DNA of 64,000 nt from an uncultured archaeon (GTDB lineage: Archaea > Iainarchaeota > Iainarchaeia > Iainarchaeales > 1-14-0-10-31-34), in assembly GCA_964442255.1 (NCBI GenBank), contig CAYTYC010000002.1, forward strand, positions 730 to 64,729, given 5' to 3'. A program made the translations under genes and the position numbers. The notes under the pieces were generated by a model that was given only the letters and a program-made list of their open reading frames with translations, searched no databases and had not been told where the DNA came from. Of this stretch, positions 809 to 62,030 are shown piece by piece (the stretch's first letter is position 1; each line of letters starts with the position of its first letter).

Positions 809-812
809 ATGA

Positions 813-22096: not shown

Positions 22097-22105
22097 GGGA
22101 GTTAA

Positions 22106-23554
22106 ATGGGCGAAGTAAGAACAATAGCCAAAAATATGGTTGTACTCACTGCTTCAAGAGCAGTCGGCATGTTCTTGTCTTTTGCTTTGTTGATTCTTGT
22201 TGCCCGCCATTATGGGGCGGAGCTTTTTGGGGAATACAACTTTGCACTGGCTTTCTCCATTTTCTTTGTTATTGTGTCTGATTTTGGCTTGACCACGATT
22301 GCAATAAGGGATGTCGCAAGATGCAAAAGCGACAAAAAAAAGTATTTAACAAACATCTTTGCACTCAAGCTCGGGCTGACTTTCCTTGTGGCTTTAACCG
22401 TTTTTTTTGTTGTTCTTTTTTTGGGTTACCCTTCTCACCTGACTTCAATTATTTGCATTATTGTTGCAGCTTCTTTGGTTGAATCCTTTTCCAACACTTT
22501 CCGCCTTTACTTTAAAGCCTTTCAGAGAATGGAATTTGAGGCTTTACTGGTTTTCCTGCAGAGCCTCTTTTTCTTTGTTTTGGGTTGGACTGTTGTAACC
22601 AACAGTTTGGACATCGTTTTCCTGGCTTTGGCTTACTTGCTTGTCAACGTTTTTATTCTTTTCTTAAGCGCGTTCCTTGCACTGAAAAAAATTACTTCTT
22701 TCAGCTGGCGCCTTGACCCCGCACTTTTGAAGTATTTGCTTGTCAGCTCCGCGCCACTAATGCTAATTGGTTTTCTGGAGGCGGTTTACACCAGAATTGA
22801 CGCAGTGCTTTTGTCAAAACTTACCTTTGAGCCGATTAAGGCAATAGGCCTTTACAGCTCAGTTTACAGGCTTATTGACGCCCTCACAGTATTGCAAGTG
22901 AGCTTTTTTATTGCAATTTTTCCGGTTTTGTCTGAATTCTTTCACTCCAACCGGCAAAGGTTTGAATTTCTTTACACCCGCTCATTCAAGCTGATAATAA
23001 TTTTTTCTTTCCCCCTGGCTTCACTTATTTCAGTTTTTTCCCTTCAGATCGTTCAAATAATTTATGGCCGGGAATTCATTGAAGCTGCAAGCGCCTTAAC
23101 TGTCCTTGCATGGGTTTTGCCTTTCACTTTCCTGAACTCTTTGCTTTTCAATGTCCTTTACTCAAGTGAAAAACAAAAATGGGCAATGGTCTTTTTCGCA
23201 TTAACAGCCGGCTTAAACATTTTGCTGAACCTCTTGTTAATTCCTGTTATGAGTTTTGTTGGGGCAAGTGTCAGCGCACTAATGAGTTCAGCGTTTTTGT
23301 TTGCCCTTCTTTTCTTTTACGTTTCCAGAAAAACAGCCAAGCCCGCTATTATGCGTTACCTTCCAAAACTTTCAGTCCTGAATATGCTGTTTTTCGCACT
23401 TGTTTTCCTGTTTAATGAGTCCTTTGGCTTGACTTTTTTCTCATTTATATTAATTCTTTTTGTTTCAATATTGTATTTGTTTCTTCTCTTTGTTTTAAGG
23501 GTTGTGGATGAGAAGGACTTGGGTCTGCTAAGGCAGCTTACCGGAAGAAGGTGA
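22106..23554 (+). CDS. wzx: Wzx-type oligosaccharide flippase (MOP superfamily polysaccharide biosynthesis protein).
   Basis: The N-terminus IAKNMVVLTASRAVGMFLSFALLILVARHYGAELFGEYNFALAF is the classic Wzx/RfbX start. The protein has about 12-14 TM over 482 aa. Confidence 0.8.
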   Translation: MGEVRTIAKNMVVLTASRAVGMFLSFALLILVARHYGAELFGEYNFALAFSIFFVIVSDFGLTTIAIRDVARCKSDKKKYLTNIFALKLGLTFLVALTVFFVVLFLGYPSHLTSIICIIVAASLVESFSNTFRLYFKAFQRMEFEALLVFLQSLFFFVLGWTVVTNSLDIVFLALAYLLVNVFILFLSAFLALKKITSFSWRLDPALLKYLLVSSAPLMLIGFLEAVYTRIDAVLLSKLTFEPIKAIGLYSSVYRLIDALTVLQVSFFIAIFPVLSEFFHSNRQRFEFLYTRSFKLIIIFSFPLASLISVFSLQIVQIIYGREFIEAASALTVLAWVLPFTFLNSLLFNVLYSSEKQKWAMVFFALTAGLNILLNLLLIPVMSFVGASVSALMSSAFLFALLFFYVSRKTAKPAIMRYLPKLSVLNMLFFALVFLFNESFGLTFFSFILILFVSILYLFLLFVLRVVDEKDLGLLRQLTGRR

Positions 23555-23561
23555 ACTTGAA

Positions 23562-25289
23562 TTGAATGTTTTGGGTATCTCAGCTGAATTTGTTCACGAC
23601 TCTGGTGCAGCGCTGGTAAAGGACGGAAAACTTGTCGCTGCGGCAGAAGAGGAAAGATTTTCGAGAAAAAAGCACGACTACTCCGCCCCGCTTGAATCCA
23701 TTAAATTCTGCCTAAACCAGGCCAACCTGACAATGGATCAAATAGATTTTGTGGCTGTTCCGTGGCTGCCGTTCAGTGCCTTCTCCTATGGAAATGTTTT
23801 CAGCTGGCTTTCCCGGGGAAGGGATGTCTGGCCTTTGGGGGCCCATTTTCTCTTAAACAAGGGGCTTAACTCCGCTGTTAAACTGTGGAAGTCAGGAAAA
23901 AACTCTAACCAGCTTGAAGTTGAAAAACTTTGCCAGGGCACTGTCGCCTATCTTTCAGAGCAATACCTTGACATTCCTGAAGTAAAATACTTTGAACACC
24001 ACAAAGCGCATGCAGCCAATGCATTCTACTGCTCCGGCTTTGATGATGCCTCAGTCATAAGTGTTGACGGAAACGGCGAGGCAAACGCAACTGTTGTCTG
24101 GAATGCGGACGGAAACTCAATCGAAAAAGTCAGGGAAGAGCTTTGCCATAATTCCTTGGGAATGTTTTACCTTACTGTAACAAATTTTTTGGGGCTTGGA
24201 AGGTTTGGGGAAGGCAAAACAATGGGGCTCGCAGCCTACGGAAAGAAAAACAAATCCCTGGAAAAAAGAATCCGTGAAAAAATAATTGACACCGAAAAAC
24301 CGGAATGGTACAAGCTTGGCTTCCCTTCTTTAACGTATGAATCAAACGCAATAAACAAACAGGTTTTGGGTTTTCCCAGCCGAACAAATGAATCCCCCCT
24401 TGGAAAAAATTATGCTGACTTTGCTTTTGCTTCCCAGAAGGCGTTGGAAAAGGCTGTTTCAAATATTGCGGAATGGGCTGTTGAAAAAACAGGCCGCCCC
24501 AATCTCTGCTTAAGCGGGGGGGTTGCCTTAAATTGCCTTGCAAACTCTGTTGCAATGAATTCACACAATGTAAACGGTTTTTTTGCTTTCCCTGCAGCAA
24601 ATGACGGCGGGACCCCTGTTGGGGCGGCACTGCTTTGCGCTGCAGAGCACGGAGAGAAAGTCAAGCACAAGATGGAGCATGCTTACTTTGGCCCAGCTTA
24701 CTCCAATAAGGAAATCGAAAATCTGTTAAAAAAAATTAAAGCCGATTACACTGAAAGCAGGGACATCTCAGGCGAGGTAGCGGAACTCCTTGCAAAAAAC
24801 AGGATTGTGGGCTGGTTTCAGGGCAGAATGGAGCTCGGACCAAGGGCTTTGGGGAACAGAAGCATTCTTTCAAATCCAACAAAAAAATCCACAAAAGACA
24901 AGGTAAACAAGTTAAAGGGGCGGGAGTTTTGGCGTCCTTTGGCTCCTTCCATGCCGGATGAAGCAAAAGAAGAATACTTGGAGGCTGCTGTTGAGTCCCC
25001 GTTTATGATTTTAAGTTTTAACATCAGGAAAGAAAAACTAAAAGAAATTCCTTCCGCCTCCCACGTTGACGGCTCCACCAGACCCCAAACAGTAAAGAAA
25101 AAATCCAACCCAAAGTATCACCGTCTTATAAAAGAGTTTGAAGGCTTAACCTCTGTTCCAGTTGTCTTAAACACTTCCTTTAATTTGAAACACGAGCCAA
25201 TTGTCTGCAGCCCTTTGGATGCTGTCCGGACATTTTACTCCTCCACACTTGACGCCGCCGCAATAGGGGATTTTTTGTTGTTAAAGTAA
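23562..25289 (+). CDS. NodU/CmcH-family carbamoyltransferase.
   Basis: The N-terminus MNVLGISAEFVHDSGAALVKDGKLVAAAEEERFSRKKHD is highly characteristic of the family. The 575-aa length also fits. Confidence 0.85.
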   Translation: MNVLGISAEFVHDSGAALVKDGKLVAAAEEERFSRKKHDYSAPLESIKFCLNQANLTMDQIDFVAVPWLPFSAFSYGNVFSWLSRGRDVWPLGAHFLLNKGLNSAVKLWKSGKNSNQLEVEKLCQGTVAYLSEQYLDIPEVKYFEHHKAHAANAFYCSGFDDASVISVDGNGEANATVVWNADGNSIEKVREELCHNSLGMFYLTVTNFLGLGRFGEGKTMGLAAYGKKNKSLEKRIREKIIDTEKPEWYKLGFPSLTYESNAINKQVLGFPSRTNESPLGKNYADFAFASQKALEKAVSNIAEWAVEKTGRPNLCLSGGVALNCLANSVAMNSHNVNGFFAFPAANDGGTPVGAALLCAAEHGEKVKHKMEHAYFGPAYSNKEIENLLKKIKADYTESRDISGEVAELLAKNRIVGWFQGRMELGPRALGNRSILSNPTKKSTKDKVNKLKGREFWRPLAPSMPDEAKEEYLEAAVESPFMILSFNIRKEKLKEIPSASHVDGSTRPQTVKKKSNPKYHRLIKEFEGLTSVPVVLNTSFNLKHEPIVCSPLDAVRTFYSSTLDAAAIGDFLLLK

Positions 25290-26093
25290 GTGATTTTTAT
25301 GCAAAAGATTTCAGCCTGCATTGTCGCAAAAAATGAGGCCCACTGCATTGCGGAATGCCTTGAAAGCGTTAAGTGGGCTGACGAAATAGTCTTGGTTGAC
25401 CAGCAAAGTTCAGACGCCACCACTGCAATCAGCAAAAGGTTTGGGGCAAAAATTTTCAGGTGCAGGAAAACAGGGTTTGTTGAACCCGCAAGGGAATTTG
25501 CGGTTGGAAAAGCCTCTAACCAGTGGGTGCTTGTTTTGGATGCAGATGAAAGCCTTAGCAAAGAACTGCAGAATGAAATAAAAGAAATGCTTGAAAGAGA
25601 AAGCTCTTTTGACGGTTTTCTTCTGCCCTTTCAGACAATTTTCCTGGGCAAAACCTTAAACCATTCCGGTGAAACTTTTTTCCAGGCAAGGCTTTTCAAG
25701 AGCTCCAAAGCAGTTTTTCCAACCGAACTCCACCAGCCCATTCAGGTAAACGGAAAACTTTCACAGTTAAACGGAAAAGTGTTTCATGAACCATACAGGG
25801 ACCTGGAAGAATTAAGGGAAAAAACCGTTTTGTATAGTTCGATTGAAGCCCGCCAGGATTTTTCCAAGGGAAAAAGTTTTTCCCTTTTAAAACTCTTGTT
25901 TTCTCCTTTTGCTTCTTTTGCACACAAATTTTTTTTTCGCATGGGTTTCCTGGACGGCAGGCGCGGGCTTACCTTGGCTTTTTTTGCTGCAAAATATAAA
26001 TTCTTAAAGCAAAAAAAGCTGAAGGCCCTTGCTTCAGGACATTCGGCTCACTTAAAAAATCCAGCCAAATTATCAAGCAATGAAAAACGGTAA
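25290..26093 (+). CDS. Family 2 glycosyltransferase.
   Basis: It has ISACIVAKNEAHCIAECLESV...VLVDQQSSDAT and VLVLDADE (DxD). Rossmann-like GT-A N-terminus. Confidence 0.8.
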   Translation: MIFMQKISACIVAKNEAHCIAECLESVKWADEIVLVDQQSSDATTAISKRFGAKIFRCRKTGFVEPAREFAVGKASNQWVLVLDADESLSKELQNEIKEMLERESSFDGFLLPFQTIFLGKTLNHSGETFFQARLFKSSKAVFPTELHQPIQVNGKLSQLNGKVFHEPYRDLEELREKTVLYSSIEARQDFSKGKSFSLLKLLFSPFASFAHKFFFRMGFLDGRRGLTLAFFAAKYKFLKQKKLKALASGHSAHLKNPAKLSSNEKR

Positions 26094-27433
26094 AATTTTT
26101 CCATGAACCCCTGCACAGTTATTTTCCCGTTAAGCAAACCCTTAACCATGTCAAACGGGGTTCCTTCAACTCCGTCAATGAATCCAAAGTGTTCAGTGAA
26201 CATTAACGTCAAAGAATATAAGGCCAGAACTGCCCCCAAAGCTATTCCGAGTTTCCTGTGCTTTTTCAGAAAAACTGAATAGCCCACAACGAACACCGGA
26301 AAAAGGGAAGTCAAATACCTCTGGGAAAAGCTCCAGCCCCCGCTCCACTCCGAAAAAAAACTGTACGCAACAGTCAGGCTCAAAAACATTCCTAAAAAGA
26401 AAACCCCCGGGCCCCTTTTTTCCTTAACCAAATAAATCAAGCCAATGATTGAAAGAACAGTCAACGGAGACCACAGAAAGAGCCCGTGCACAGGGTTTAA
26501 CAGGATGTTCAGGAAATTCATTGCAGGAATTGGCGCGGCACTGCTTGAAGCAATCAACGCAATGTTTTCCTCTCCCATTGCCCCAATGTGTGCGTTCCAG
26601 TAAAAAGGCAAAACCCAAATCAATGACAGAAACCCCGCCCCTAAATGCTTTGTGTGCCCCATTTTCTTAAAATAAATATAGTAAACGAAAAGAAAAACAA
26701 AGAACACCGCATTCGCATATCTCACCCACATGCTTGCCGCCAAAAGTGCTCCGACAAAAAACTGGTATTTTGGGTTTTTGTCCCTTAAAAACAGAAACAG
26801 GAATACAAACAAGCTGATCACAAAAGCGTCAACTGCATGAGTGAAAGAGGGAACAAAAACAGAGTAGTAAAGCAGAGGCGTTGAAACGAAAACCGCCAGC
26901 ACAGTGAAGGAAGACTTTTTCAGTTTTAGTTGCCCCAAAATCCCCAGGCAAATGAAAAGAGTCAATATCCCGTAAAAGTTGCTTGAAATGTTCACTGAAG
27001 CCATGTGAATCCATAACTCTTCAACTGTTCCCTGCACTCCAAGCTCTGCAGAAAATTTTGCCTGAAAAAAGCCATCCAAAGCCAAAGCAACAATATAAAA
27101 AGGGGCATTAAAGAGCGCGGTCCCAAATGAAGCATTTGTATTGAATCTTTCATGTTTTGGGTCCCATGTCACCAGATAAATGTGCTGGTCTGGTTCCTGC
27201 ATTACCTGGTTTGTTAACTCAAAGTCAAGGTCCTGGGCCATTGATTTCATTAGTGTGTAATGCGCAAACCCGTCGCTCCAGACAACGTAGCTGTTAAAGT
27301 TTGCCGCAAAAAAAACAAACACCGCCGCAACAAACAAACACTGTTTGTGCCTTGACGCGAATTCCTTGACTTTTTTGAAGGAGGGTTTCTCCATTTTTCC
27401 GCCTTGCCAGTGTTTAATAATTTTTCCGCTCAA
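26048..27433 (-). CDS. Polytopic membrane protein, possibly a GT-C-type glycosyltransferase.
   Basis: First TM, then a ~90-aa loop carrying acidic motifs (SDGFAHY, DLDFE), then more than 10 TM helices. It is convergent with the upstream GT2 and overlaps it by about 46 nt. Confidence 0.4.
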   Translation of the reverse strand: MSGKIIKHWQGGKMEKPSFKKVKEFASRHKQCLFVAAVFVFFAANFNSYVVWSDGFAHYTLMKSMAQDLDFELTNQVMQEPDQHIYLVTWDPKHERFNTNASFGTALFNAPFYIVALALDGFFQAKFSAELGVQGTVEELWIHMASVNISSNFYGILTLFICLGILGQLKLKKSSFTVLAVFVSTPLLYYSVFVPSFTHAVDAFVISLFVFLFLFLRDKNPKYQFFVGALLAASMWVRYANAVFFVFLFVYYIYFKKMGHTKHLGAGFLSLIWVLPFYWNAHIGAMGEENIALIASSSAAPIPAMNFLNILLNPVHGLFLWSPLTVLSIIGLIYLVKEKRGPGVFFLGMFLSLTVAYSFFSEWSGGWSFSQRYLTSLFPVFVVGYSVFLKKHRKLGIALGAVLALYSLTLMFTEHFGFIDGVEGTPFDMVKGLLNGKITVQGFMEKFYRFSLLDNLAGFFK

Positions 27434-29464: not shown

Positions 29465-30550
29465 ATGAAGATTTTGTGGCTCAGCTGGAAGGACATCAAG
29501 CACCCGTGGGCCGGGGGCGCGGAAAGGATAAGCTTTGGCTTGATGAAACGGCTTGTAAAGTCAGGGCATGAACTCACTTTATTCACCTCAACCTTTGACG
29601 GCTGCAGGGCGCTGGAAAAAATCGAGGGAGTCAATGTTGTGAGGGACGGCGGGAGATACACTGTTTACCTTAAAGCATTCAATTATTACAGGAAGAAAGC
29701 AAAAGGAAAATTCGATTTGATTGTCGATGAAATAAACACAATTCCTTTTTTCAGCCCCCTTTACGTTAAAGAAAAAAGGCTTGCTCTGCTTTACCAGCTT
29801 TCAAGAAAAGTTTGGTTCTTTGAAATGCCATTTCCTGTTTCGTGGATAGGTTATTTTCTTGAGCCCCTTTTCCTCCGCCTTTACAGAAAAGACTGCCTTG
29901 TAACTATTTCCAGTTCAACAAGGCAGGACCTTGAAGAAGCAGGAATTTCAAACATTGATTTGCTTCCGGTGTGCATAAACTTCAAGCCCCTTCTACGGCC
30001 TCCCGTAAAGGAAAAAAAGCCAACTCTTTTGTTTGTCGGCAGGCTTACTCGGGGCAAGCGCCCTGACCACGCTTTTGAGGCATTTAAGCTAGCGAAAAAG
30101 GAAATCCCTGACCTGCAGTTATGGATTGCCGGAAGCGGATTTTTCGCGGAGAAACTCAGGAACATTGTTCATAAAGGATTCAAGTTTTTTGGCTATCTTC
30201 CATTAAAAAAGAAAGCCGAGTTAATGCAAAAAGCGCACCTCGTTCTTGTCACAAGCGTAAGGGAGGGCTGGTGCCTGGTTGTAACCGAAGCAAATGCCCG
30301 CGGAACCCCTGCAGTCGGCTACAACATTCCTGGGCTAACGGAGTCAATTAAAGACGGAAAAACCGGCTCAATTGTTGAACCCGACCCGGAGGCAATGGCA
30401 AAAGAAGTCGTCAGAATACTGAAAAACAAAAAGTTATGCAAAAAACTAAGCTTAAATGCGCTGAAAGACTCAAGGAATTACACCTGGGACAAAACGGAAA
30501 AAGCCTTTAAGAACATTCTTTCAAAGACTGTTAAACAAAATAAAACCTAA
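29465..30550 (+). CDS. Family 4 (GT-B) glycosyltransferase.
   Basis: The N-terminus is MKILWLSW...AGGAERISFGLMKRLVKSGHELTLFT. The C-terminal EGWCLVVTEANARGTPAV...DGKTG is an E-x7-E-type motif. Confidence 0.85.
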   Translation: MKILWLSWKDIKHPWAGGAERISFGLMKRLVKSGHELTLFTSTFDGCRALEKIEGVNVVRDGGRYTVYLKAFNYYRKKAKGKFDLIVDEINTIPFFSPLYVKEKRLALLYQLSRKVWFFEMPFPVSWIGYFLEPLFLRLYRKDCLVTISSSTRQDLEEAGISNIDLLPVCINFKPLLRPPVKEKKPTLLFVGRLTRGKRPDHAFEAFKLAKKEIPDLQLWIAGSGFFAEKLRNIVHKGFKFFGYLPLKKKAELMQKAHLVLVTSVREGWCLVVTEANARGTPAVGYNIPGLTESIKDGKTGSIVEPDPEAMAKEVVRILKNKKLCKKLSLNALKDSRNYTWDKTEKAFKNILSKTVKQNKT

Positions 30551-30562
30551 AAGGGTCTTTGA

Positions 30563-32359
30563 ATGCGTTTCGGGGAATTTTTCCGGTTTTCAAACAAAAA
30601 GTTTTTGCTCTTGTTTTTCTTCCTGCTTTTCTTTGTTTTCTTCCGCTTCCAGCCGATTCCCTTTAACGGAGACGATTTTGGTTACCTTACAACATACAAA
30701 ACCGTTTTCCCGGGACCAATTACGGCGGAAACCCTGGATGAATTAAGCCAGCTGAATGTCCTTCCCAGGCCTTTTGCTTTGCTTATTTTTTTTCCAATAA
30801 TTTTTCTCTTCGGCTTTGGCCCTTATGTTTTGGTTTACGCAATGCATTTTTCCGCTGTGGGGATAACCCTTGCAATGCTTTACCTGAATTTTAAGTTGTT
30901 CTCAAAGCGTTACGGCTTTAACACAGGGGCGCTCTCCACGTTTCTTCTTGCAACAACTTACACAACCTCTTATGTAATCGGCTACATTGGAACCCTTAAC
31001 ATCACGCTTAGTGCGGTTTACTGGCTGGCTTTTCTGTTACTTTTGAATTCCTTCAGTAAAACCAAAAACCTGCTTATCGCGTCACTACTGGTTGCGGTTG
31101 CGTTGTTTACGCGTGAGGCGATTGGAGTTGCTTTCCTTGCAGTTATTGTTTTCCTTTTGTTTGTGGATTTAATTAATTTCACCCAAAAAAAGCCAGGCGC
31201 AATCTCTTCTTTCATGGGGCTTGCAAAAAAGTACGCAATCCTTTTCCTTCCATTTATTGTTTTTTGGGCTTTTTTAACTATCTTCTTTGGCGGAATTGGG
31301 GGCTTCCAGCAGGGGATGATGGAGGAAAACTTTTTCCTGGCCGCAAAAGATTTTTTCCTTCCGCCCAATGAATCCGGAATACTCTATTATGCCACTTATT
31401 TCACCCAAAACTATTTGGCCCCAATTTTCCTGTTTGCCTTTGCGCTTCTCGCTTTTTCTTTTCTTCGTTCGCCTTCCTTCACCTTTCCTTCAGTTGGCTC
31501 TTTCATCAACCGCCACCTCTTTTCACTTGTTTTGCTTGCCTCGCTTGCGGGAATGGCTGTGCCAATTTTCTTGAATTCCCATGAAGCATTCAGATATTTG
31601 GCTCCGGTTCTTCCAATTATCTTTGTTTTCTTTTCCAAAATATTTTCCGACCACCTGCTCTCAAAACTGGATTCAATGCCTCTTAAGCTCTTGGCTTTGG
31701 GTTTTTTCCTTAACCTTGTTTTCTGGATTCTGTTCTTCAATGCATGGATTTTTTCCCCTGAAGCCGCAACACTTTTACTGAACATTTTTTTCTTTTTTAT
31801 TTTGGCGTTTTCCTTTTCTCCGATTTTTTTTGCATTGCTGAAAGGGCTTCCAAGAAAACAGCGCCTCCTGAATTCCGCTCTCGCGGTTCTGCTTGTCCTT
31901 CTTTCAGTTTCAGTCGTAGCTCAAGTGAATGAAGTTTACGGGGGCTTTTACTCCGTGCACTACACTAACTCCAAACTAGCCTTTGACTCCGGGCTTTTCA
32001 TTGCCTCTTCATTTCCTGAAAACTCCCGTGTTTTTACAGTGCAAGCGCATCCCTGGTTTTGGTGGGGCTCAATGAAGGCCCTTGGAAGGGAAGACACAAT
32101 TATCGTGCACAGGGTTCCTGAACCAAGTGAACTTAACCAAAAGGATTTTCTCATCCAAAACAGTATTGATGGAGGCAACTCTATCCAAAAATTTGTTGAC
32201 GAAAACCCCGAAAAATTCCGTGAACTAAAAAGCTTTGGTGAGGAGTACCGGTTCCATCCCCGGTCAACTTTAAGCGTCAAAATGCTTTCAGAAAAACTTC
32301 TGTTGTTTGAATTCTTCCGGGACAGGTCCCCGGAAATAATATTATTTGAAGTCAGGTGA
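30563..32359 (+). CDS. GT-C-fold membrane glycosyltransferase (putative).
   Basis: An N-terminal TM is followed by a loop-1 motif FNGDDFGYL (acidic DD at codons around 30671). There are more than 11 TM and a ~130-aa C-terminal soluble domain. Total 598 aa. Confidence 0.55.
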   Translation: MRFGEFFRFSNKKFLLLFFFLLFFVFFRFQPIPFNGDDFGYLTTYKTVFPGPITAETLDELSQLNVLPRPFALLIFFPIIFLFGFGPYVLVYAMHFSAVGITLAMLYLNFKLFSKRYGFNTGALSTFLLATTYTTSYVIGYIGTLNITLSAVYWLAFLLLLNSFSKTKNLLIASLLVAVALFTREAIGVAFLAVIVFLLFVDLINFTQKKPGAISSFMGLAKKYAILFLPFIVFWAFLTIFFGGIGGFQQGMMEENFFLAAKDFFLPPNESGILYYATYFTQNYLAPIFLFAFALLAFSFLRSPSFTFPSVGSFINRHLFSLVLLASLAGMAVPIFLNSHEAFRYLAPVLPIIFVFFSKIFSDHLLSKLDSMPLKLLALGFFLNLVFWILFFNAWIFSPEAATLLLNIFFFFILAFSFSPIFFALLKGLPRKQRLLNSALAVLLVLLSVSVVAQVNEVYGGFYSVHYTNSKLAFDSGLFIASSFPENSRVFTVQAHPWFWWGSMKALGREDTIIVHRVPEPSELNQKDFLIQNSIDGGNSIQKFVDENPEKFRELKSFGEEYRFHPRSTLSVKMLSEKLLLFEFFRDRSPEIILFEVR

Positions 32360-49176: not shown

Positions 49177-49941
49177 ATGAAACAGAAAAAGATTGCTGTC
49201 TTTATAATTGCCTACCAAGCGGTGACCACACTTATTTCCGCGATTGACAGGATTCCCCCGGGTTTGATGAAAAAATCCAGAGAAATTTATGTTTTCGATG
49301 ACTGCAGCAATGACAACACCTACTATGCGGGAATAGGCTACAAGTGCCTCAATAAGCTTAACAAGCTGAATGTTTACAGGAACAAGAAAAACCTCGGCTA
49401 CGGCGGAAACCAGAAAAAAGGCTACAATTACGCCATCAGGAAAGGCTATGACATTGTTGTAATGCTTCACGGGGATGTGCAGTATGCCCCGGAAAAAATA
49501 CCTGAATTAATTGCCCCCCTGGAAAAAGGCGAAGCCGACATGGTTTTCGGTTCAAGGATGAAGGGAAACCCCAGGAAAGGCGGAATGCCCCTATGGAAAT
49601 TTTTTGGGAACAAGTTTCTTACTTTCGTTGAAAACAAGGCCCTTGGGCTTAACCTTTCAGAATTCCATTCGGGTTTCAGGGCTTACTCTTGCGGGGCGCT
49701 CAAGAAGCTTCCATTCAACAAAATAACAGACGACTACTACTTTGACACCGAAATATTCATTCTCCTGAAAGAGAAAGGAATGCGGATAAGGGAAATCCCT
49801 ATCCCCACCCACTACGGGCCTGAGTCACATAAAATAACTTTCACGAAATCCGTCAAATATGGTGCAAACATCCTTAAAACTCTGACCAGGTATGTGCTGC
49901 ACAAGAGGGGCATAATAACCGTTGAAAAATTCAATGTTTAA
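49177..49941 (+). CDS. Family 2 glycosyltransferase.
   Basis: It has IAVFIIAYQAVTTL...YVFDDCSNDNT...VVMLHGDVQY. GT-A fold. Confidence 0.8.
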   Translation: MKQKKIAVFIIAYQAVTTLISAIDRIPPGLMKKSREIYVFDDCSNDNTYYAGIGYKCLNKLNKLNVYRNKKNLGYGGNQKKGYNYAIRKGYDIVVMLHGDVQYAPEKIPELIAPLEKGEADMVFGSRMKGNPRKGGMPLWKFFGNKFLTFVENKALGLNLSEFHSGFRAYSCGALKKLPFNKITDDYYFDTEIFILLKEKGMRIREIPIPTHYGPESHKITFTKSVKYGANILKTLTRYVLHKRGIITVEKFNV

Positions 49942-51549
49942 GGGGTAATCAAAATAAGGAAAAACCATTTTCTTATCGCATCAATTGTTTTCTTTGCATT
50001 TGTTTTAAGGCTTTTTCTTCTCCTCCAAAAAAAAGTTGTTTCAAGCGGAGATGAAGCGGGTTTTCTTTTGGCTTCCCTCAACATCTTCAATGTTTTCCAG
50101 GCCTCAGGTCAAGGCGCTTTCCTGCACATTTTTCGTTTTCTTGCTTTTCCCTGGGGTTACGTCAACATACTGGTAAATTCAGTTAACATTTCCCTGCTGT
50201 CTTTTTTTGGGGCCCCTTTAACCGAATTCACCTTATTTTTTCCCTTTGTTGTTCTGGGGAGCGCTTCAATATTTCTTGTTTACCTTGTCGGAAAAGAAAT
50301 CATGAATGAAAAAGCCGCCTTGATTGCGTCCGCAATTTTTGCGTTTATGCCTTTCCAGATAATGCATTCCGTAAGAAACCTTAACCTTGTGCCGCCGGCT
50401 TTTCTTTTTCTGCTTACAATCTATTTTTTAACCAAACACTTCAAAAACAGGGACTCAAAAAAGTTTGCCCTGCTCTCCGCCTTTTCCCTTGCAATGTATT
50501 TCTCCTCAGACAATGTTTTTTTGATAATGTTTCCGGCGCTTTTTTTCCTTGGGTTCTTTTTCTCAACCGGCAGGGACCTTGCCTCAAGAATTCGCGGGAT
50601 TTTTAACAGGCGTTTTATTGGAATAATTATTTTGACCCTGGTTTTGCTTCTGCCGCTCCTGCTTGTCCAGGCTTATTTTGTCTTTACAGGAAACCTCACC
50701 CAAGGCTTTTGGGGGCACCTGTTTGAAGGAAAGGCAAAACCGGGTTTTTTTTTGCTTGGCTTTTTATACCTTTTTTCAAGTTACTCCGGGATAGTTTTTA
50801 CATTGTTTTTGTTGCCTGCAGTTATTTTTGCGTTAAAGGAGTTCAAATCCAGGGAAAAAGACTTTTTTTTGGCACTGTTTCTGGTTTCATCCTTTATTTG
50901 GGTTTTTGTGGTTCCCAACACCCAGACAATTGTCAGGAATTACATGTATCATTCGGCGATTGCAGCGGCTTTTTTGGTTGGGTTTTTTCTTGAACGCATT
51001 GACTCCCATTTTGTCCTCAAAAAACGTTTTTACTGGACTGCCCCTGCTCTTGTTGCTTTGATTGTTTCATTTGCTTTGTTTGGCGGTTTTCTTGGCTTGG
51101 TTGGCACTGTATTGGATAAAAACACCGGAGTTAAAACCGCGGGCTATTATGCCAGGGAAAACATTGCACAAGGTGAAGCCGTTTTTACTGACCAGGACCC
51201 GACAATTGCAAGGTACTATTTTCACCTGGACACATTGGCTGTTTACGACTCCCATTCAGCCGATTTATGGGGTTACTTTGATTCAGTGAAAGAAAAAACC
51301 TCTTTCATTATTGTTGAGGCAAAAAACAGGGAAGAGGCTGAAAATCGGATGGGTTCGGCGTTCAGCAAAACAGCCGAAATTTTTTACGGGGGAAAGCCCG
51401 TGATGTTCATTTATTCAAAAGAAAAACTGCCTCTCCGAAGAATGAATTCCGAAGACTTTGACAAACTTTTTGACAAAAAATACGGCAAAATTGAATCCCT
51501 GCTGACTGAAAAAATCTGGGAGACCGCAAGCAATCAGGAAATCCGCTGA
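49942..51549 (+). CDS. GT-C-fold membrane glycosyltransferase paralogue with an ambiguous start. Its N-terminal TM and acidic loop motif are encoded immediately after, and in frame with, the upstream GT2 stop.
   Basis: The frame is open from the codon after the GT2 TAA (49939-41) and encodes IKIRKNHFLIASIVFFAFVLRLFLLLQKKVVSSGDEAGFLLASL (TM1 plus loop-1 DE at about 50050). The first ATG/GTG/TTG in frame is the TTG at 50068, which lies after the DE motif. It has 11 or more TM and a ~130-aa C-terminal domain. Confidence 0.5.
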   Translation, partial: GVIKIRKNHFLIASIVFFAFVLRLFLLLQKKVVSSGDEAGFLLASLNIFNVFQASGQGAFLHIFRFLAFPWGYVNILVNSVNISLLSFFGAPLTEFTLFFPFVVLGSASIFLVYLVGKEIMNEKAALIASAIFAFMPFQIMHSVRNLNLVPPAFLFLLTIYFLTKHFKNRDSKKFALLSAFSLAMYFSSDNVFLIMFPALFFLGFFFSTGRDLASRIRGIFNRRFIGIIILTLVLLLPLLLVQAYFVFTGNLTQGFWGHLFEGKAKPGFFLLGFLYLFSSYSGIVFTLFLLPAVIFALKEFKSREKDFFLALFLVSSFIWVFVVPNTQTIVRNYMYHSAIAAAFLVGFFLERIDSHFVLKKRFYWTAPALVALIVSFALFGGFLGLVGTVLDKNTGVKTAGYYARENIAQGEAVFTDQDPTIARYYFHLDTLAVYDSHSADLWGYFDSVKEKTSFIIVEAKNREEAENRMGSAFSKTAEIFYGGKPVMFIYSKEKLPLRRMNSEDFDKLFDKKYGKIESLLTEKIWETASNQEIR

Positions 51550-51566: not shown

Positions 51567-52709
51567 TCATTTTTCCGCAACCTTCCTCAGCTCTTCAGCC
51601 AACAACTTTGCACATTTGTCCAAGGAGTATTCCTCCAAAGCTTTTTTTCTTGCCTTTTTTCCCATCTTTTCCGATTCACCCGAATTTTCTTTAAGCCAGC
51701 AGACCTTTTCCGCAATTTTTTCCGGGGAAGGAAAAGTCATTTCCCCGTACTTTGGATTTTTCCTTAAAGGAACACAGAACCCGGTTTTTCCATCCTCAAC
51801 TATTTCATTCATTGGCGGCTTGTCTGCCGCAATGCACGGAATGCCTGAAGCCATTGCCTCAACCAACGGAACGCCAAAACCTTCATTGTTGCTTGGAAAA
51901 ACCAAAACATTTGCGTTAAAATATTTTTCCGGCATTTCCTTGAATTCAGTCCACTGTGTCTCGGAAAAAAAGTTTTCTGAAAAACTTTTCTTTGTTTCCT
52001 TTATTTTCTTCGCTATTTTCCCCGCATGCGGGGAATATCTGTCCAAAGGGGCGTGAACCCTGAAAACAATTTCAGGGTGTTTTTCCAGAACAAATGGAAT
52101 TGAATCCAGGAAGGGAAGGATTCCTTTCGCGTAATGCGCCCTGTTAACAAACAAAACCTCAAACCCGCTTTTCCCGTCTTTTGGGGAAAAAAGTTCGGTG
52201 TCAACACCCAAGGGAATGTTCTCAACATTTTCCAGCCCATTTGCCTTGAACTCTTCTTTTGCCCATTTGCTTGTGCTTACAGTGAGGTCTGCTGCCTTTG
52301 CAAGCTCGAGGATTTTTCCCTTTTTTTCCGTTAGGTTTTCCGCCTCATGGATTGTCTGGAAGAAAACAGTCTTCGCCTTCGCTTTTCCCAAGATTTTTTC
52401 CAGGTTAACCCCTAAACAGAAGAAAACAATTGCATCCAAAAAACTGTCCTCCGGCTTTGCGAAACCGATTCCAGGGAAAAGCTTTTTGTCTATTCTGTTT
52501 CCGTAAGGGACTGCGTAAACGTCTGTTCCTTTTTCCTGCATCAGTTTTCCTACAAAGTAATAAGTTACAGCCGCGGCACCGTTTTCTGTTGGCGGGAACA
52601 GCGAGCACCACCCGACATTCAGCTTGTCTGGGTCAACTCTTGCCCTGCTTTTCGCCAAATCAATCGGAGTCAGGCTTGTTTCCAAATATTTTTTGGTTCT
52701 TCCTATCAC
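51567..52709 (-). CDS. Family 4 (GT-B) glycosyltransferase.
   Basis: The C-terminal motif is FPSNNEGFGVPLVEAMASGIPCIAADKPPMNEIVEDGKTG. Confidence 0.8.
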   Translation of the reverse strand: MIGRTKKYLETSLTPIDLAKSRARVDPDKLNVGWCSLFPPTENGAAAVTYYFVGKLMQEKGTDVYAVPYGNRIDKKLFPGIGFAKPEDSFLDAIVFFCLGVNLEKILGKAKAKTVFFQTIHEAENLTEKKGKILELAKAADLTVSTSKWAKEEFKANGLENVENIPLGVDTELFSPKDGKSGFEVLFVNRAHYAKGILPFLDSIPFVLEKHPEIVFRVHAPLDRYSPHAGKIAKKIKETKKSFSENFFSETQWTEFKEMPEKYFNANVLVFPSNNEGFGVPLVEAMASGIPCIAADKPPMNEIVEDGKTGFCVPLRKNPKYGEMTFPSPEKIAEKVCWLKENSGESEKMGKKARKKALEEYSLDKCAKLLAEELRKVAEK

Positions 52710-53632
52710 TTGTTTCCACCGAAATTGATTTTCAAAAGCTTAAGCGAAAGCCCTGCCTTTTCCCTTGCTTTTTCTTTGTCTGAAAGATATGAAACAGGAA
52801 AAAAAGCAACTTCTGCCAAGTTGCTGAGGGAGACCGCGGCTTTTAATGCTGTTGTCTTTGCGTTCCCGTGGTGTTTTTCGAAAAACTTCAACAAGTTTTT
52901 GTACTGCATTTCCTTTTTTTTCAGGGAATCCTTTGTGCTTTTTCCCCCGTAATGGATTGCTTTTACGCCGGGAAAAAAGTATAGTTTCCAGCCCTTTTTT
53001 TTCATCCTGTAAAACCAGTCGGTTTCCTCCACGTAGGCAAAAAAGCTTTCATCAAACATTCCCGTATCTTTTATTGCCTGCTTTTTCACTAAGTAACAGC
53101 TTCCACTGAAGTTCTCTATCTCTTCTATTTCTCTGTATCCGCATGAATCTTTTGCCAGTAACCGGTTTGCAAAAGGAATCCTTGCCCCAAACTCATTTGC
53201 AAGGGTGGGAAAAGGCGAACAGTTCTTCTGCACGCTTAAATCCTCATTCAGTATTTTGCAGCTTGCTGCCCCTGCCTTTGAATTCGAGTCCAAAAATTTA
53301 ACCATTGCCTTTATATCAGAGGAAAGCACTTTGACGTCACTGTTCACTATCATGACATATTTTCCCTTGCTTTTCCGTATTGCCTGATTGTGTGCCTTCC
53401 CGAATCCAAGGTTCTCCTTGTTCTTTATGAGGAGCGCTTCAGGAAACTCTTTTTCCACCATTTCTGCACTGCCGTCTTTTGAGTTGTTGTCCACCACAAT
53501 TATTTCAAGGCTTTTGCCTTTAAGCTCTTTTTTTATTGACTTAATGCATTGTTTTGTGAGTTCTCTTGTGTTCCAGGACGCAATGCTTACTGAAATGTCT
53601 GTTCCTTTCCGCATATAAAAAAAACACTGCAA
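52706..53632 (-). CDS. Family 2 glycosyltransferase.
   Basis: It has VSIASWNTRELTKQCIKSI...IIVVDNNSKDGS...MIVNSDV. It overlaps the upstream GT4 by 4 nt. Confidence 0.8.
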   Translation of the reverse strand: MQCFFYMRKGTDISVSIASWNTRELTKQCIKSIKKELKGKSLEIIVVDNNSKDGSAEMVEKEFPEALLIKNKENLGFGKAHNQAIRKSKGKYVMIVNSDVKVLSSDIKAMVKFLDSNSKAGAASCKILNEDLSVQKNCSPFPTLANEFGARIPFANRLLAKDSCGYREIEEIENFSGSCYLVKKQAIKDTGMFDESFFAYVEETDWFYRMKKKGWKLYFFPGVKAIHYGGKSTKDSLKKKEMQYKNLLKFFEKHHGNAKTTALKAAVSLSNLAEVAFFPVSYLSDKEKAREKAGLSLKLLKINFGGNK

Positions 53633-53649
53633 AAAACTTTTAATAAACT

Positions 53650-54723
53650 CTAACGGGCTGACTCAATGATTTTTTTCCATTTCTTGATGTAAACGGCTGA
53701 ATCAAATCTTTTGCTCCATTCAATACAGTCTTTTTTCATTGCCTTGGCCCGATTTTCATTTAACCCCCTGACTGCCTTGATTATTTCCTCTTTTTTTGGT
53801 TCAACAGGAAAACCGGTTTTTTCTTTGACCACTGTTTCCCTGCAGCCTCCCTCATTCACCGCAATGCAGGGCTTTCCTGAAGCATTGCCTTCCAACGGAA
53901 CCATTCCAAAGTCCTCATCCACTGGCATATAAACTGTCGCAAAGCAGTTCGCGTAATATTCCGCCAGTTTTTTTTCCGTAAGCCTTCCCACACACTTAAT
54001 GTTCCCGTGTTTTTCGGCAATCTTCCTTATGTTTTTTTCTTCAGGCCCGAAACCCGCTATCACCAGCTTTTTCTCCTGCATCTCCGCGAATGCCTCTGCA
54101 ATTAACCCAAACCTTTTTTCCGGAACAAGCCTGCCTGCAGTAAAATAAAAGTCACCGAATTTGCTGAAGTAATATTTCTTTGTTTCAATGGGGGGGTAAA
54201 CAATCTCTGAATCCAAACCATAAAATTTTTTCACCCGTGACTGCACGTTCTTTGAGATTGAAACGATTTTTTTGAACCTTTTTTTAACGGCTTTCTGGTC
54301 CCTTGGGCAAAAAAAATCAATATACCGTTTCCAAAGCAGTTTCTGCAGAAAACCCAATTCATTCATTCTTCGCTTGCGCAAATCGTAAAGAGTCCTGTTT
54401 GGCGTAACGCACAACCATATGTTGTTTTGATTTTCCTGTGCCCCGTAAACGGAAAAAAACCCTGAAAAAATGTTCACGTCATACTCGAATCTTTTCCTAT
54501 TAAGATAAAACCTTGCCGCGCTTTCCAGCCACCCCAGTCTTTCATTAAACTTAACGCTCCAGTTTCCCAAATCAATTACTTTTCCCTTAACCCATTCCCT
54601 GTAAACTTCTTTTCTGTAGCCGCAGGTTATGATGTCCGCATTCAGTTCGTTCGCCAGCACGGCTGAAATCCTTTCCGCGCCCCCTCCCTGCATAAAGGAG
54701 TCAAAACAAATCGATATCCGCAT
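53650..54723 (-). CDS. Family 4 (GT-B) glycosyltransferase.
   Basis: The N-terminus is MRISICFDSFMQGGGAERI. The C-terminus is DEDFGMVPLEGNASGKPCIAVNEGGCRETV. The track start at 54783 is trimmed to the ATG at 54723. Confidence 0.8.
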   Translation of the reverse strand: MRISICFDSFMQGGGAERISAVLANELNADIITCGYRKEVYREWVKGKVIDLGNWSVKFNERLGWLESAARFYLNRKRFEYDVNIFSGFFSVYGAQENQNNIWLCVTPNRTLYDLRKRRMNELGFLQKLLWKRYIDFFCPRDQKAVKKRFKKIVSISKNVQSRVKKFYGLDSEIVYPPIETKKYYFSKFGDFYFTAGRLVPEKRFGLIAEAFAEMQEKKLVIAGFGPEEKNIRKIAEKHGNIKCVGRLTEKKLAEYYANCFATVYMPVDEDFGMVPLEGNASGKPCIAVNEGGCRETVVKEKTGFPVEPKKEEIIKAVRGLNENRAKAMKKDCIEWSKRFDSAVYIKKWKKIIESAR

Positions 54724-56398
54724 CCTTTTTCCCCGCATGCTTTCTCCACCCCTTTGTCCATTTGGATTCAAAAACCTTGTCAAATTCCTTACCGGAAACC
54801 AAATGCCCCTGCCCTTTTTCCTTATCCAAAAGCCCTATCCCTGTGTCTTTGCCTAATCCGTCTCGCCAGTCAATTGCCCTGCGGTGGTCAAACTCCTTCT
54901 CAAAAGAATAATATGTCAAGTGGTTTGGGATAAGACTTGGCTCCCGTGTTCCTGTAAACAGCCCCAACGGAAATAAAAGAACAAAAACCAAAACAAGGTT
55001 TCTTTTTTGCTTTGGAAGCCTTGCCAGGAACATGAATGCAAAAAGCCCCAAAAAAAGGACAAGATAGTTCAAGGTTCTTATTTCAAAGTTTGCAAAGCCT
55101 TCCTTAAGGAAGAATCCCGCAAAAAGCGTTAAAGCAAAAATACAAAGCAAAGGCGCAATAACAAAAAACACCCACCCAAGCCTTCTTAAATCATTTTTTC
55201 TGGTCATCTCAGCCAAAGTGAGGGAGCCGGCAGCCAAAAGAAAAAAGTCAGTTGAATGCAGAACCAAAAATACAGTCGGATTAAGGTATGAACGCGTTAT
55301 TTCATTTAAGTGCAACACTGATTGTATTGTTATGGCCGCAAGAATCAGCCCCAGCAAAGTTAATCGGATTCGATTTGGCTTGGTTTTTTTGGCAAGCGCC
55401 AGAACTGCGTTAAAAACACGCGATATCCTTTTATGGGCTAATTTCAGGCCGGCTAAAGCAAGGAAAGTCAGTCCTGTCAGCAGGAGTGCGGGAACAAAAA
55501 CAAGGTATGAAAAATTCAGGCCTGATTCAAGGACATGGAGCTTCAGCAGACCGGGGTAAGCAATCTCGTTGTATAGACCTCCAGCCCCCATTGCTTCCCT
55601 TACCACAAAGTGCAGGTCCCAGAGTATTCCCGCAAGGGAAAGGAAAAGCATTAGTGAAGCCATCCAGAGAAACAGAAGTGCGGCAAACCCTGCCCTGAGC
55701 TTAAGCGGGTTTTTCTTCAAAAAAACGTAAAACAAGGCGAATGTAAGGAATAAATAAGAGAGAAGGAGGGACCACAAGTGCATAAAGGCCAACGGCACCA
55801 GAACCAAAGCCGCAAGAAAAACAAAGGAAGCCTTTTTTTGCTTCAATGCTTTCACCAAAAGCAGCGCCAAAGCAAAGAACAGAACCATGCCTGCAGACTG
55901 CGGTTTGAGCTCAATAAGCGGCCAGATAAAAAAACCGGAAAACATTGTGCAGAGTACGCCCCCAAATGCAATCCTCTGGTTTGATGTGACTTCCCTTAAA
56001 AGCGCAAAAGCAATCAGGACGGTGAAGGCGCTGAAAAACAGGTCCAAAAAGGCAATAAGGAACCCGAGCTCAAATCCTGCAAAGCCATCCAACTGCAACT
56101 GCGTAAGCAAAGCCAGGAAACCGGGCCCAGAGCTGTGGGACTTAAATATGCTTCCCGCATTTTCAGAGACATCAAAGTTCTGCTTCAAAATGTTTTCATC
56201 AGTTGAATTGAAAATAAATTCATGGCTTAAACCAAACCTTGCGTAAACCGAAAAAAAAACTGAAAGCAGCACCAAGGCAAGGAGAAAAAATTTCAGTTTT
56301 TTTTCGAAAAACTTTTCATTGTTTCTTAAAACCAGAAGCAAAAGCAGGGCCACTGCGCCCCAAATAAGGAACAAAAAAATCGCTGAAAAAGCGTTCAT
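54701..56398 (-). CDS. Polytopic membrane protein. Possibly a Wzy-type polymerase/ligase or a GT-C-like enzyme; function unresolved.
   Basis: 565 aa and at least 12 TM, with a ~80-aa C-terminal soluble tail. No WWDYG (AglB/STT3) motif was found. It overlaps the upstream GT4 by 4 nt. Confidence 0.4.
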   Translation of the reverse strand: MNAFSAIFLFLIWGAVALLLLLVLRNNEKFFEKKLKFFLLALVLLSVFFSVYARFGLSHEFIFNSTDENILKQNFDVSENAGSIFKSHSSGPGFLALLTQLQLDGFAGFELGFLIAFLDLFFSAFTVLIAFALLREVTSNQRIAFGGVLCTMFSGFFIWPLIELKPQSAGMVLFFALALLLVKALKQKKASFVFLAALVLVPLAFMHLWSLLLSYLFLTFALFYVFLKKNPLKLRAGFAALLFLWMASLMLFLSLAGILWDLHFVVREAMGAGGLYNEIAYPGLLKLHVLESGLNFSYLVFVPALLLTGLTFLALAGLKLAHKRISRVFNAVLALAKKTKPNRIRLTLLGLILAAITIQSVLHLNEITRSYLNPTVFLVLHSTDFFLLAAGSLTLAEMTRKNDLRRLGWVFFVIAPLLCIFALTLFAGFFLKEGFANFEIRTLNYLVLFLGLFAFMFLARLPKQKRNLVLVFVLLFPLGLFTGTREPSLIPNHLTYYSFEKEFDHRRAIDWRDGLGKDTGIGLLDKEKGQGHLVSGKEFDKVFESKWTKGWRKHAGKKDADIDLF

Positions 56399-60391: not shown

Positions 60392-61933
60392 TTATTCCTT
60401 TACAGGCGCGGGCATAAGTTTTCTTGCCATTGAAATAAGCCTTTCCAGCCCTATTCCTGTGAGAAGGATTATTGTGTAAACAAGCATTGTCACAAGAATT
60501 GTGTAGGATACAAGAAAATGCGTTGAAATAACCGGGTTAAGGTAAATAAAGAAAAGCATGAAAACAAGAAGTATGACAAGGATTTTTGCCCTTTTGCTGA
60601 AAACACTGAAGTAAAAGCCAACCATTGCGATAATGAAGTGTGAAAGGCTCACATAGTAGAGGACATTCAAAAGGTTTCCTGCGGTTGGCTGGAAAGAGAA
60701 AAGGTTTGAAGCCAGGACAAGCATCACGACGCTTGCGCCAGCCCAAAAAAGCACAAGCCTCTTTGAGGCAATGCTTTTGAATTCGGTTGCAAGATAGAAA
60801 AGAAAAACAAAGAAAAGCACCGTGAAGAGTTCCCTGCTGAAGATGAACAGCGTAGCGTAAGGAATTAAGGTGAACACATACCTTTGTATATTCTCCCTTC
60901 CAAACGTCACAAGTATTCCATAAAGCGCGGCAATAAACAGCCCGAAGCCGATAAGCATGTTGAAAGGAAGCAGTGTTATGCTATTAAGGAAATTAAAAGA
61001 AAAAACCAGGGTAATTGAAGACAAAGTGCTTGCAAGGAAGTTTCCTTTTGTCATGTAAATCATCAGGCTGTAAGTTAAAACAAGGAGTGTGGAAGAAAAA
61101 AGAAAAGGCGCGAGTTCAAAACCCAAGAAACCAAAGGAATAGTTTGAGGTATAAAAGTTTTTGGTGAGCCCGAAACTAACCGCCAAATGCGTTACAAGGT
61201 TAACCGCAAGCAGGAAAGGAAGGAGCGCCATGTTGTACTTCACTACTCTCGGGTTGCGCAAAAACTTCAAGTCAAAAAGCCTTCTTGCAATTTTCACTCC
61301 GTCCCTGAATGCGTTAAGTTTGGGTTCATCCCCGCGAGTGCGGTAGGTAATCGGAATTTCGGTGAACAAAAAATCCCTGTGGGTGCATTCACTGAAAAGG
61401 TTTGCCTCAATGTCAAACCCTTCCGCAGTGAGTTCAACCCCTTTAATGACTTTTTTCCTGAAACCCCAATATCCAGTGCACAAATCAGTTATCTTTGAGC
61501 CGAACAAAAGGTTTGCAATAAAGGTAAGCCCCCTATTTCCCAGGAGGTTTGTTCCGCTCATCGCACCTTTTTGTATGGAGCCCTTAAGCCTTGACCCCAA
61601 AACCACGTCCGAGCCTTTTTCCAGTTCGCCCAAAATCGGGATAATGTACTCCCCGGGGTAGGTTTCATCAGCGTCAAGCATTATGGTGTAATCCGTTTGA
61701 ATATAATTGAATGCATCCCTTACTGCGTTTCCTTTCCCTTTCCTTGTCTGGATAACTGTTGCGCCTTTTTTTTTCGCGATTTCCTCTGTCCTGTCAGTGG
61801 AGGGGCCATTAACTACAAGCACCCCTGTTTTGAAGCCCATTTCCCTTAATTTCTTGAGCGGAATTTCCCCTATAACATTTCCAATATGTTTTTCCTCGTT
61901 CAAAGCCGGGATAAAAATAGTCAATGATTCCAT
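60392..61933 (-). CDS. AglD-like fusion: a Dpm1-type GT2 domain followed by a polytopic C-terminal membrane domain.
   Basis: The N-terminal ~230 aa is GT-A (LTIFIPALNEEKHIGNV...VLVVNGPSTDRT...MLDADE). Another ~280 aa carrying 8 or more TM helices follows. Confidence 0.7.
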   Translation of the reverse strand: MESLTIFIPALNEEKHIGNVIGEIPLKKLREMGFKTGVLVVNGPSTDRTEEIAKKKGATVIQTRKGKGNAVRDAFNYIQTDYTIMLDADETYPGEYIIPILGELEKGSDVVLGSRLKGSIQKGAMSGTNLLGNRGLTFIANLLFGSKITDLCTGYWGFRKKVIKGVELTAEGFDIEANLFSECTHRDFLFTEIPITYRTRGDEPKLNAFRDGVKIARRLFDLKFLRNPRVVKYNMALLPFLLAVNLVTHLAVSFGLTKNFYTSNYSFGFLGFELAPFLFSSTLLVLTYSLMIYMTKGNFLASTLSSITLVFSFNFLNSITLLPFNMLIGFGLFIAALYGILVTFGRENIQRYVFTLIPYATLFIFSRELFTVLFFVFLFYLATEFKSIASKRLVLFWAGASVVMLVLASNLFSFQPTAGNLLNVLYYVSLSHFIIAMVGFYFSVFSKRAKILVILLVFMLFFIYLNPVISTHFLVSYTILVTMLVYTIILLTGIGLERLISMARKLMPAPVKE

Positions 61934-62030
61934 CGAAAAAATATGCGCTAAACCCAATTTAAAGCTTTATGGGGCCCGGAAGGCAATCAAATAAATTTTA
62001 ATTCATTAAACACTATTATAAAGTGTTACA

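Follow-up and report, generated by a model that had tools for sequence, protein, structure and literature searches.

Which codon starts a gene whose first transmembrane helix is encoded ahead of every canonical start codon in its frame? The question is raised by the junction of two glycosyltransferase genes in a 64,000-nucleotide (nt) stretch of DNA from an uncultured archaeon (contig CAYTYC010000002.1; the whole stretch is hereafter called the window), the first encoding a family 2 glycosyltransferase (GT2) and the second a membrane glycosyltransferase of the GT-C type. A preliminary description of the window had stated that GT-C coding sequence follows the GT2 stop codon in the same frame and that no canonical start is met until the TTG at 50068, which both the sequence and the listing of open reading frames (ORFs) confirm. 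Downstream of the TAA at 49939–49941 the unchanged frame reads GGG GTA ATC AAA ATA AGG ... (GVIKIRKNHFLIASIVFFAFVLRLFLLLQKKVVSSGDEAGFL) and stays open up to that TTG. Within these 42 in-frame codons ATG, GTG and TTG are all absent, and the only near-cognate codons are ATC 49948, ATA 49954, AGG 49957, ATC 49975, ATT 49984 and AGG 50008. We show here by sequence homology that the 42 codons are genuine coding sequence related to the N-terminus of a GT-C family, and that the public 493-residue annotation is truncated at its N-terminus, lacking the first transmembrane (TM) helix and an invariant aspartate. The features needed for the argument are the following, residues of the GT-C protein being counted throughout from the codon right after the GT2 stop (535-residue extended ORF).

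49177 to 49941, forward strand: GT2 gene, 254 residues, stop codon TAA at 49939–49941
49954 to 51549, forward strand: proposed full GT-C coding sequence, from ATA, 531 codons, stop codon TGA at 51547–51549
49960 to 50028, forward strand: coding region of TM helix 1 (TM1), residues 7–29; a helix in the AlphaFold2 model (block pLDDT 89–92), aligned with TM1 of 18 homologues
50050 to 50055, forward strand: GAT GAA, Asp37-Glu38, the loop-1 acidic motif; Asp37 invariant (19/19)
50068 to 50070, forward strand: TTG, first canonical start, used in the public NCBI and Logan calls (493-residue product P0001)

The extended ORF is intact over its 535 codons, and within the window a long hydrophobic open extension ahead of the first canonical start is found in this gene alone. 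An assembler error at the junction is unlikely, because a separate Logan re-assembly of run SRR7048218 matches the window at 5000/5000 bases with 0 mismatches, junction included, with the caveat that both assemblies may share the same reads.

Homology of the N-terminal extension

Searched exhaustively with phmmer against 1.84 billion representative proteins, the extended 535-residue protein recovered 268 homologues (best E-value 4.7e-64), the top matches sharing 30–36% identity with it. High-scoring full-length matches are mostly about 540–580 residues long, and query residues 4–15 align opposite target residues 4–16; as the alignments begin at this point, it is the extended ORF, rather than the annotated one, with which the homologues are colinear. 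In an alignment of 19 sequences, comprising the window protein and 18 full-length homologues (536–578 residues, with a Met start), Asp37 (GAT, 50050–50052) is present in 19/19 and Arg23 in 18/19, and both residues are encoded 5' of the TTG 50068. A hidden Markov model (HMM) made from the N-termini of the 18 homologues alone, with the query left out, gives the 42-residue peptide a score of 32.5 bits (E = 5.5e-9), to be compared with a maximum of 14.5 bits among 2000 composition-preserving shuffles. The AlphaFold2 model, calculated with the 19-sequence alignment (predicted local distance difference test, pLDDT, 87.2; predicted TM-score, pTM, 0.89), predicts a helix at residues 7–29, corresponding to TM1, and a next helix at residues 36–52, and places Asp37 in the first external loop directly after TM1. 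The proposal of the preliminary description that the 42 codons encode a first GT-C TM helix and the loop-1 acidic motif is borne out by the HMM score, the invariance of Asp37 and the predicted helix. Homologous coding sequence 5' of the first canonical start, a mark of genes with a near-cognate start, is thus present. No orthologue starting downstream of the Asp-Glu region, the observation that the same description had set against its own proposal, was found: 18/18 homologues start 19–29 residues before the conserved Arg, upstream of the Asp-Glu motif.

The family surfaced with exhaustive HMMER searching, word-indexed protein searches with either the single protein or the 19-sequence alignment having returned solely the protein itself or marginal matches. 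Single-protein scans of genome and metagenome contig collections matched nothing, and no orthologous junction was found in the same collections with a degenerate DNA pattern of the junction (GGG(N0-2), ATN allowed). Three other GT-C-like ORFs of the window (30563, 35217 and 42785) give no significant pairwise BLAST match to the target; they are weak evidence for its N-terminus, because they have merely the general TM1-G-D-D/E pattern in common with it, and the distant homologues were used in their place.

These data bear directly on the annotated product. The TTG 50068 is the first canonical start of the frame and was called in NCBI as well as in Logan, but the protein starting there would have neither TM1 nor Asp37 and would begin inside the predicted helix 36–52. 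All of the aligned homologues (18/18) start upstream of its equivalent, and its Shine-Dalgarno (SD) context is poor, the upstream SD-like matches being weak or badly spaced (the best one 12 nt away). With one TM helix gone, the other helices would furthermore be expected to span the membrane the other way round. That the 493-residue protein is the real functional product is hardly conceivable, and modelling or expressing the public P0001 would presumably yield an inverted, inactive protein. Gene callers limited to ATG, GTG and TTG will repeat this truncation.

The GT-C protein and its GT2 partner

The protein matches the Pfam family PMT_2 (PF13231) over residues 94–216 with 37.0 bits, the cut-off being 26.1. 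The top Foldseek matches of the model are AglB (3wak, 1e-9), yeast and human STT3, ArnT (5ezm), ALG12, Pmt4 and PglB, and the family profile matches STT3 chains at 3.9e-9. In the profile alignment, the SSDE motif lies one column off the EFDP motif of human STT3A, which holds the loop-1 Asp. In GT-C enzymes this loop-1 Asp, next after TM1, takes part in catalysis or in metal binding. The window protein combines a PMT_2 score above threshold, a multi-spanning GT-C architecture and an acidic loop-1 residue, the last of which counts only if translation starts upstream of 50050. As modelled, the downstream gene encodes a stand-alone glycosyltransferase of the GT-C type, its predicted fold being STT3/AglB/ArnT-like, and adds a new, divergent protein to the GT-C superfamily.

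The GT2 protein matches PF00535 (69 bits); its NCBIfam matches, all sub-threshold, are to AglJ, PpgS, dolichyl-phosphate hexose transferase and ArnC, and its PDB match is the Pyrococcus dolichyl-phosphate mannose (DPM) synthase 5mlz (6.5e-8). Judged from its sequence, it resembles the soluble polyprenyl/dolichyl-phosphate sugar synthases, which fits the classical pairing of a donor synthase with a GT-C enzyme. Most likely, the GT2 would charge dolichyl or polyprenyl phosphate with a sugar on the cytoplasmic side, and the GT-C would use this lipid-linked sugar on the outside of the membrane, as suggested by its predicted fold and by the adjacent or nearby GT2. The two genes form a recurring module of separate genes in this family, with no fusion, since the GT2 is close by but separate in 5/7 of the homologue loci retrieved:

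P0003 locus: 239-residue GT2 directly downstream, 13-nt overlap
P0006 locus: 229-residue GT2 upstream, 171-nt spacer
P0005 locus: GT2 about 1.5 kb upstream
P0007 locus: GT2 about 1.2 kb upstream
P0008 locus: GT2 about 1.3 kb upstream
P0004 locus: short contig, no GT2 seen
P0009 locus: short contig, no GT2 seen

Three explanations had been offered in the preliminary description, namely non-canonical initiation, a GT2–GT-C fusion interrupted by a single nonsense codon or by a sequencing error, and readthrough of the TAA at 49939–49941. The latter two make one fusion protein of GT2 and GT-C and draw on the facts that both ORFs share a frame with only the stop between them, that such a topology would be permissible (GT2 cytoplasmic, TM1 running from inside to outside), and that GT2 and GT-C types are functionally linked and neighbours in the homologue loci. 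However, none of the best 150 of the 268 GT-C homologues exceeds 699 residues, which is shorter than the fusion would be, and the longest homologues tested contain PMT_2, PMT or STT3 domains or none, a GT2 domain being found in none of them. The GT2 is separate from the GT-C at every locus examined, sometimes downstream or 1–1.5 kb off, and the linked GT2 homologues (229–242 residues) stop at the alignment position where the window GT2 stops. The TAA itself is identical in the second assembly, and TAA terminates 17 of the 53 tabulated ORFs of the window. The homologue lengths, the separate loci and the GT2 ends show that the protein is not a fusion; the fusion or readthrough reading is largely refuted, its probability being close to nil, and non-canonical initiation fits best among the three. 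A reassignment of the stop codon or a programmed TAA readthrough was also considered and rejected, as 17/53 ORFs end in TAA and the GT2 ends together with its homologues. The 'AglD-like' gene that had been cited as a nearby precedent for a GT2-membrane fusion does not serve as one of the same kind, because it has no detectable GT-C domain; its C-terminal part (about 300–350 residues) matches no Pfam family, GT-C included.

60392 to 61957, reverse strand: 'AglD-like' GT2 gene; AglJ 189 bits and dolichyl-phosphate hexose transferase 115 bits, both below the equivalog cut-offs

Position of the start codon

The elements to be weighed at the junction, all on the forward strand, are these:

49940 to 49946, forward strand: SD-like AAGGGGT, overlapping the GT2 stop; anti-SD duplex of -6.4 to -8.3 kcal/mol
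49954 to 49956, forward strand: ATA, the likeliest initiation codon; in-frame codon 5 after the stop, 8 nt past GGGG and 12 nt past TAA
49948 to 49950, forward strand: ATC, alternative near-cognate start, in frame, 6 nt past the stop
49934 to 49945, forward strand, +1 frame: ATG TTT AAG GGG, translating as MFKG*; rival start

We place the translation start slot at ATA 49954, used weakly or freshly disabled, and give this placement about an even chance of being right. In a scan of the junction (49900–50110, duplex energies computed with a generic anti-SD), AAGGGGT is one of the two strongest SD-like sites. An anti-SD duplex of -6 kcal/mol or lower within 20 nt is present at 39% of 41 gene starts of the window and at 12% of random positions, and gene starts here frequently have GGAGG, GGGG or GGTG 4–11 nt upstream. 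The ATA, 8 nt past GGGG, is thus a near-cognate codon at a fitting distance from a ribosome-binding site, with the same geometry as the ATG at 30548–30565. All co-directional junctions of the window were tabulated; short gaps and overlaps predominate among them, and the ones to be compared here are:

21350 to 22106: TAG-gggagttaa-ATG, gap of 9 nt
22106 to 23562: ggTGA-acttgaa-TTG, gap of 7 nt
29465..30550 to 30563 (30548–30565): TAA-aagggtctttga-ATG, gap of 12 nt, GT-C-like ORF downstream
target, 49177 to 49954: TAA-ggggtaatcaaa-ATA, gap of 12 nt

In both the 29465 to 30563 and the target junction a G-rich motif directly follows the stop, and the gap is of 12 nt; the ATA therefore stands at the position that this genome gives to a start codon. 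The ORF behind the junction that served as positional analogue (30563–32359) encodes a GT-C-like membrane protein of 598 residues with the N-terminus MRFGEFF...NGDDFGY and no Pfam match. With a start at the ATA, the protein would begin M-RKNHF... and the conserved Arg would be residue 19; in the 18 homologues this Arg is found at residue 19–29 (mean 23.7, standard deviation 2.6).

The preliminary description had named two candidate codons, ATC 49948 and ATA 49954, of which the ATA agrees much better with the SD spacing (8 nt as against 2 nt). Initiation at the ATC (M-KIRKNHF...) could be a reinitiation from the TAA 6 nt upstream that leaves the SD unused. It would give the conserved Arg position 21, a typical N-terminal length for the family, and reinitiation is most efficient at very short distances (PMC10666635). 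Against this, the ATC lies only 2 nt past the GGGG core, outside the 4–11 nt spacing of the window, no window junction is a positional analogue of it whereas the ATA has one, and the cited literature documents no case of archaeal reinitiation at a near-cognate codon. We regard a start at this codon as very unlikely.

A further possibility, absent from the explanations of the preliminary description, is that translation starts in the +1 frame, at ATG 49934 or at TTG 49922, and that this frame connects to the main ORF at GGGG 49942–49945. This could have come about through a one-base deletion from an ancestral GGGGG, in which case the gene would be a fresh frameshift pseudogene, or the ribosome could slip -1 on G GGG with TAA 49946–49948 in the A site. 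An extra G would give the sequence MFKGVIKIRKNHF..., in which the conserved Arg occupies position 26, not far from the average of 23.7 in the family. Insertions and deletions in homopolymers are frequent mutations, and after slipping back by one base on GGGG the tRNA-Gly could pair again without a mismatch. GT2 stop and GT-C start would overlap by 8 nt; overlaps are common among the window junctions, one of 8 nt (ATGctTGA) being present at 4355–4362. Set against these points, the ATG has no upstream SD (-0.9 kcal/mol), and the presence of the strong AAGGGG 3' of such a start would be fortuitous. Four Gs are found in both assemblies. TTT AAG GGG TAA lacks the canonical X XXY YYZ heptamer of -1 frameshifting and offers only single-tRNA slippage on GGGG, and there is no downstream stimulatory structure: the RNA fold around the junction (49925–50045, 121 nt) is no better than that of shuffled sequences (z = +0.9), 166 of 200 shuffles folding at least equally well. 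A start at TTG 49922 would place the Arg at residue 30, with an N-terminus exceeding that of every homologue. On the whole, a start in the +1 frame appears unlikely, though it is the main rival of the ATA. The C-terminus of the window GT2 (about 49897–49929) holds, just ahead of its final residues, an insertion of about 11 residues, LHKRGIITVEK, relative to the three compared GT2 proteins that are encoded near GT-C homologues; this stretch is the part that would overlap the GT-C start region if translation started at ATG 49934.

Several observations weigh against the ATA 49954. A start there would give the shortest N-terminus in the family, Arg 19 being equal to the homologue minimum. The likelihood ratio contributed by the SD is only about 3, and 60% of the genes here lack a strong SD. 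A weak, AU-rich hairpin of 9 bp (AUAAGGAAA/UUUUCUUAU, 49954–49976) covers the ATA. Non-canonical initiation is seen in no other gene of the window and is thus not a visible habit of this genome, and an archaeal review gives AUG, GUG and UUG as starts and names no other (PMC7531240). A close orthologue in which the ATA, or an ancestral ATG, would show as conserved was not found in the collections searched, the best homologue having 36% identity. Finally, Ile319 (50896–50898) falls in a P-W/Y-x-F motif in which Pro is present in 18/18 homologues; together with the divergent position of the protein in its family, it is compatible with relaxed constraint, so that either divergence or relaxed constraint may be at work. 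The conserved Trp312 and Tyr316 are likewise exchanged, for Leu and Ser. Among positions conserved in at least 75% of the family, 32/44 (73%) are kept, at the low end of the family leave-one-out range of 72–95%. This pattern fits both a functional, weakly translated gene and a very recently inactivated one and does not separate them.

If the start slot is the ATA 49954, it probably once held an ATG, one G-to-A transition away. The initiator Met-tRNA would start at it with a few percent of normal efficiency; in E. coli, AUA, AUC and AUU initiate at 1–2% of AUG (bioRxiv 10.1101/063800). Ribosomes terminating 12 nt upstream might assist. Archaeal termination-reinitiation operates only over very short distances and is nearly abolished by about 20 nt (PMC10666635), and in view of this steep fall-off such help would be partial at best at 12 nt. 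Alternatively, the gene may have been silenced very recently. Between these two outcomes, we lean slightly towards weak initiation. That AUA 49954 is a genuine selected initiation codon, read by the initiator tRNA behind a good SD, is a stronger claim, which we consider doubtful, though worth keeping in view. Scans of the window with Rfam and tRNA models were empty, and a scan for sigma-70 promoters and terminators, with a model unsuited to an archaeon, gave background-level matches alone.

Genomic context

From about 20000 to 64000 the window is occupied by a very large glycan-biosynthesis island with several GT4 and GT2 genes and many methyltransferases. It includes at least four GT-C-like membrane ORFs (30563, 35217, 42785 and 49942), two flippases of the Wzx/MurJ type (22106 and 44385), a carbamoyltransferase (23562) and a B12-radical SAM enzyme (33750). 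The guanine-plus-cytosine content is about 0.48 over the first 20 kb of the window and lower, about 0.42–0.45, in the island, which is apparently fast-evolving. A similar mix of genes (radical SAM enzymes, DegT, epimerases and methyltransferases) is held by the homologue loci.

Elsewhere, a 1508-residue ORF (6744–11270, forward strand) has no Pfam match at E <= 0.001, and neither have the adjoining ORFs at 239–3006 and 6204–6737. The window also encodes a homologue of the PAC2 proteasome-assembly chaperone and a split secretion or pilus ATPase of the T2SS-E/F type with membrane proteins. Its M42 peptidase is closest (50–57% identity) to proteins from metagenome-assembled genomes of Aenigmatarchaeota, Micrarchaeota, Woesearchaeota and Nanoarchaeota. 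These genes place the window in a DPANN archaeon.

The TTG starts listed for four reverse-strand genes are probably too far upstream. That of 53650–54783 overlaps the upstream gene by 83 nt, and there is an internal start (...ggggtggagaaagcATG) with a good SD; 60392–61957, 26048–27433 and 52706–53632 have an early internal Met followed by typical N-termini (MESLTIFIP, MEKPSFKK and MRKGTDISV).

Significance and comparison with known systems

The start anomaly is of a known kind, whether it reflects near-cognate initiation or the loss of a start codon, and is accompanied by a truncated annotation. It is a real yet modest oddity of annotation and initiation, which would gain interest with AUA initiation demonstrated in an archaeon. 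With a single gene concerned, the locus is a clean candidate for near-cognate (AUA) initiation in a DPANN archaeon or, alternatively, a snapshot of a glycosylation gene just after the loss of its start codon. Were the AUA a selected start, the amount of multi-spanning GT-C produced would be a few percent of that of the soluble GT2, as a built-in control of stoichiometry, and a near-cognate start would be documented in Archaea.

With the lipid-phosphate-sugar-dependent enzymes of the GT-C(A) fold (AglB/STT3/PglB, ArnT and PMT), the window protein has in common the multi-helix fold, as predicted, a PMT_2 match above the gathering threshold and, in the external loop that follows TM1, an Asp that is invariant. 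Like the GT-C enzymes of the ArnC/ArnT and DPM synthase/PMT couples, it is paired with a GT2 similar to polyprenyl-phosphate sugar synthases, the logic of pairing ArnC with ArnT and DPM synthase with PMT being established knowledge. On the other hand, it is just 12–16% identical to any solved structure, reaches the cut-off of no NCBIfam model and, unlike known GT-C enzymes, its gene has no canonical start codon. With about 535 residues and, in the model, a small C-terminal alpha/beta domain, it also differs from the oligosaccharyltransferases, which have a large periplasmic domain.

The E. coli genes infC and pcnB, which start at AUU, likewise have conserved coding sequence 5' of the first canonical start and a near-cognate codon at a spacing appropriate to the SD. 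In contrast to these, the host here is an archaeon, the codon is known from this one sequence, and it may be a plain start-codon mutation. As in archaeal translationally coupled pairs, the GT2 and GT-C genes are co-directional and functionally linked, and the stop of the first overlaps the SD of the second; whereas the documented coupled pairs overlap by 4 or 1 nt (-4 or -1) and have canonical starts (PMC10666635), the pair described here would have a 12-nt gap and a non-canonical start.

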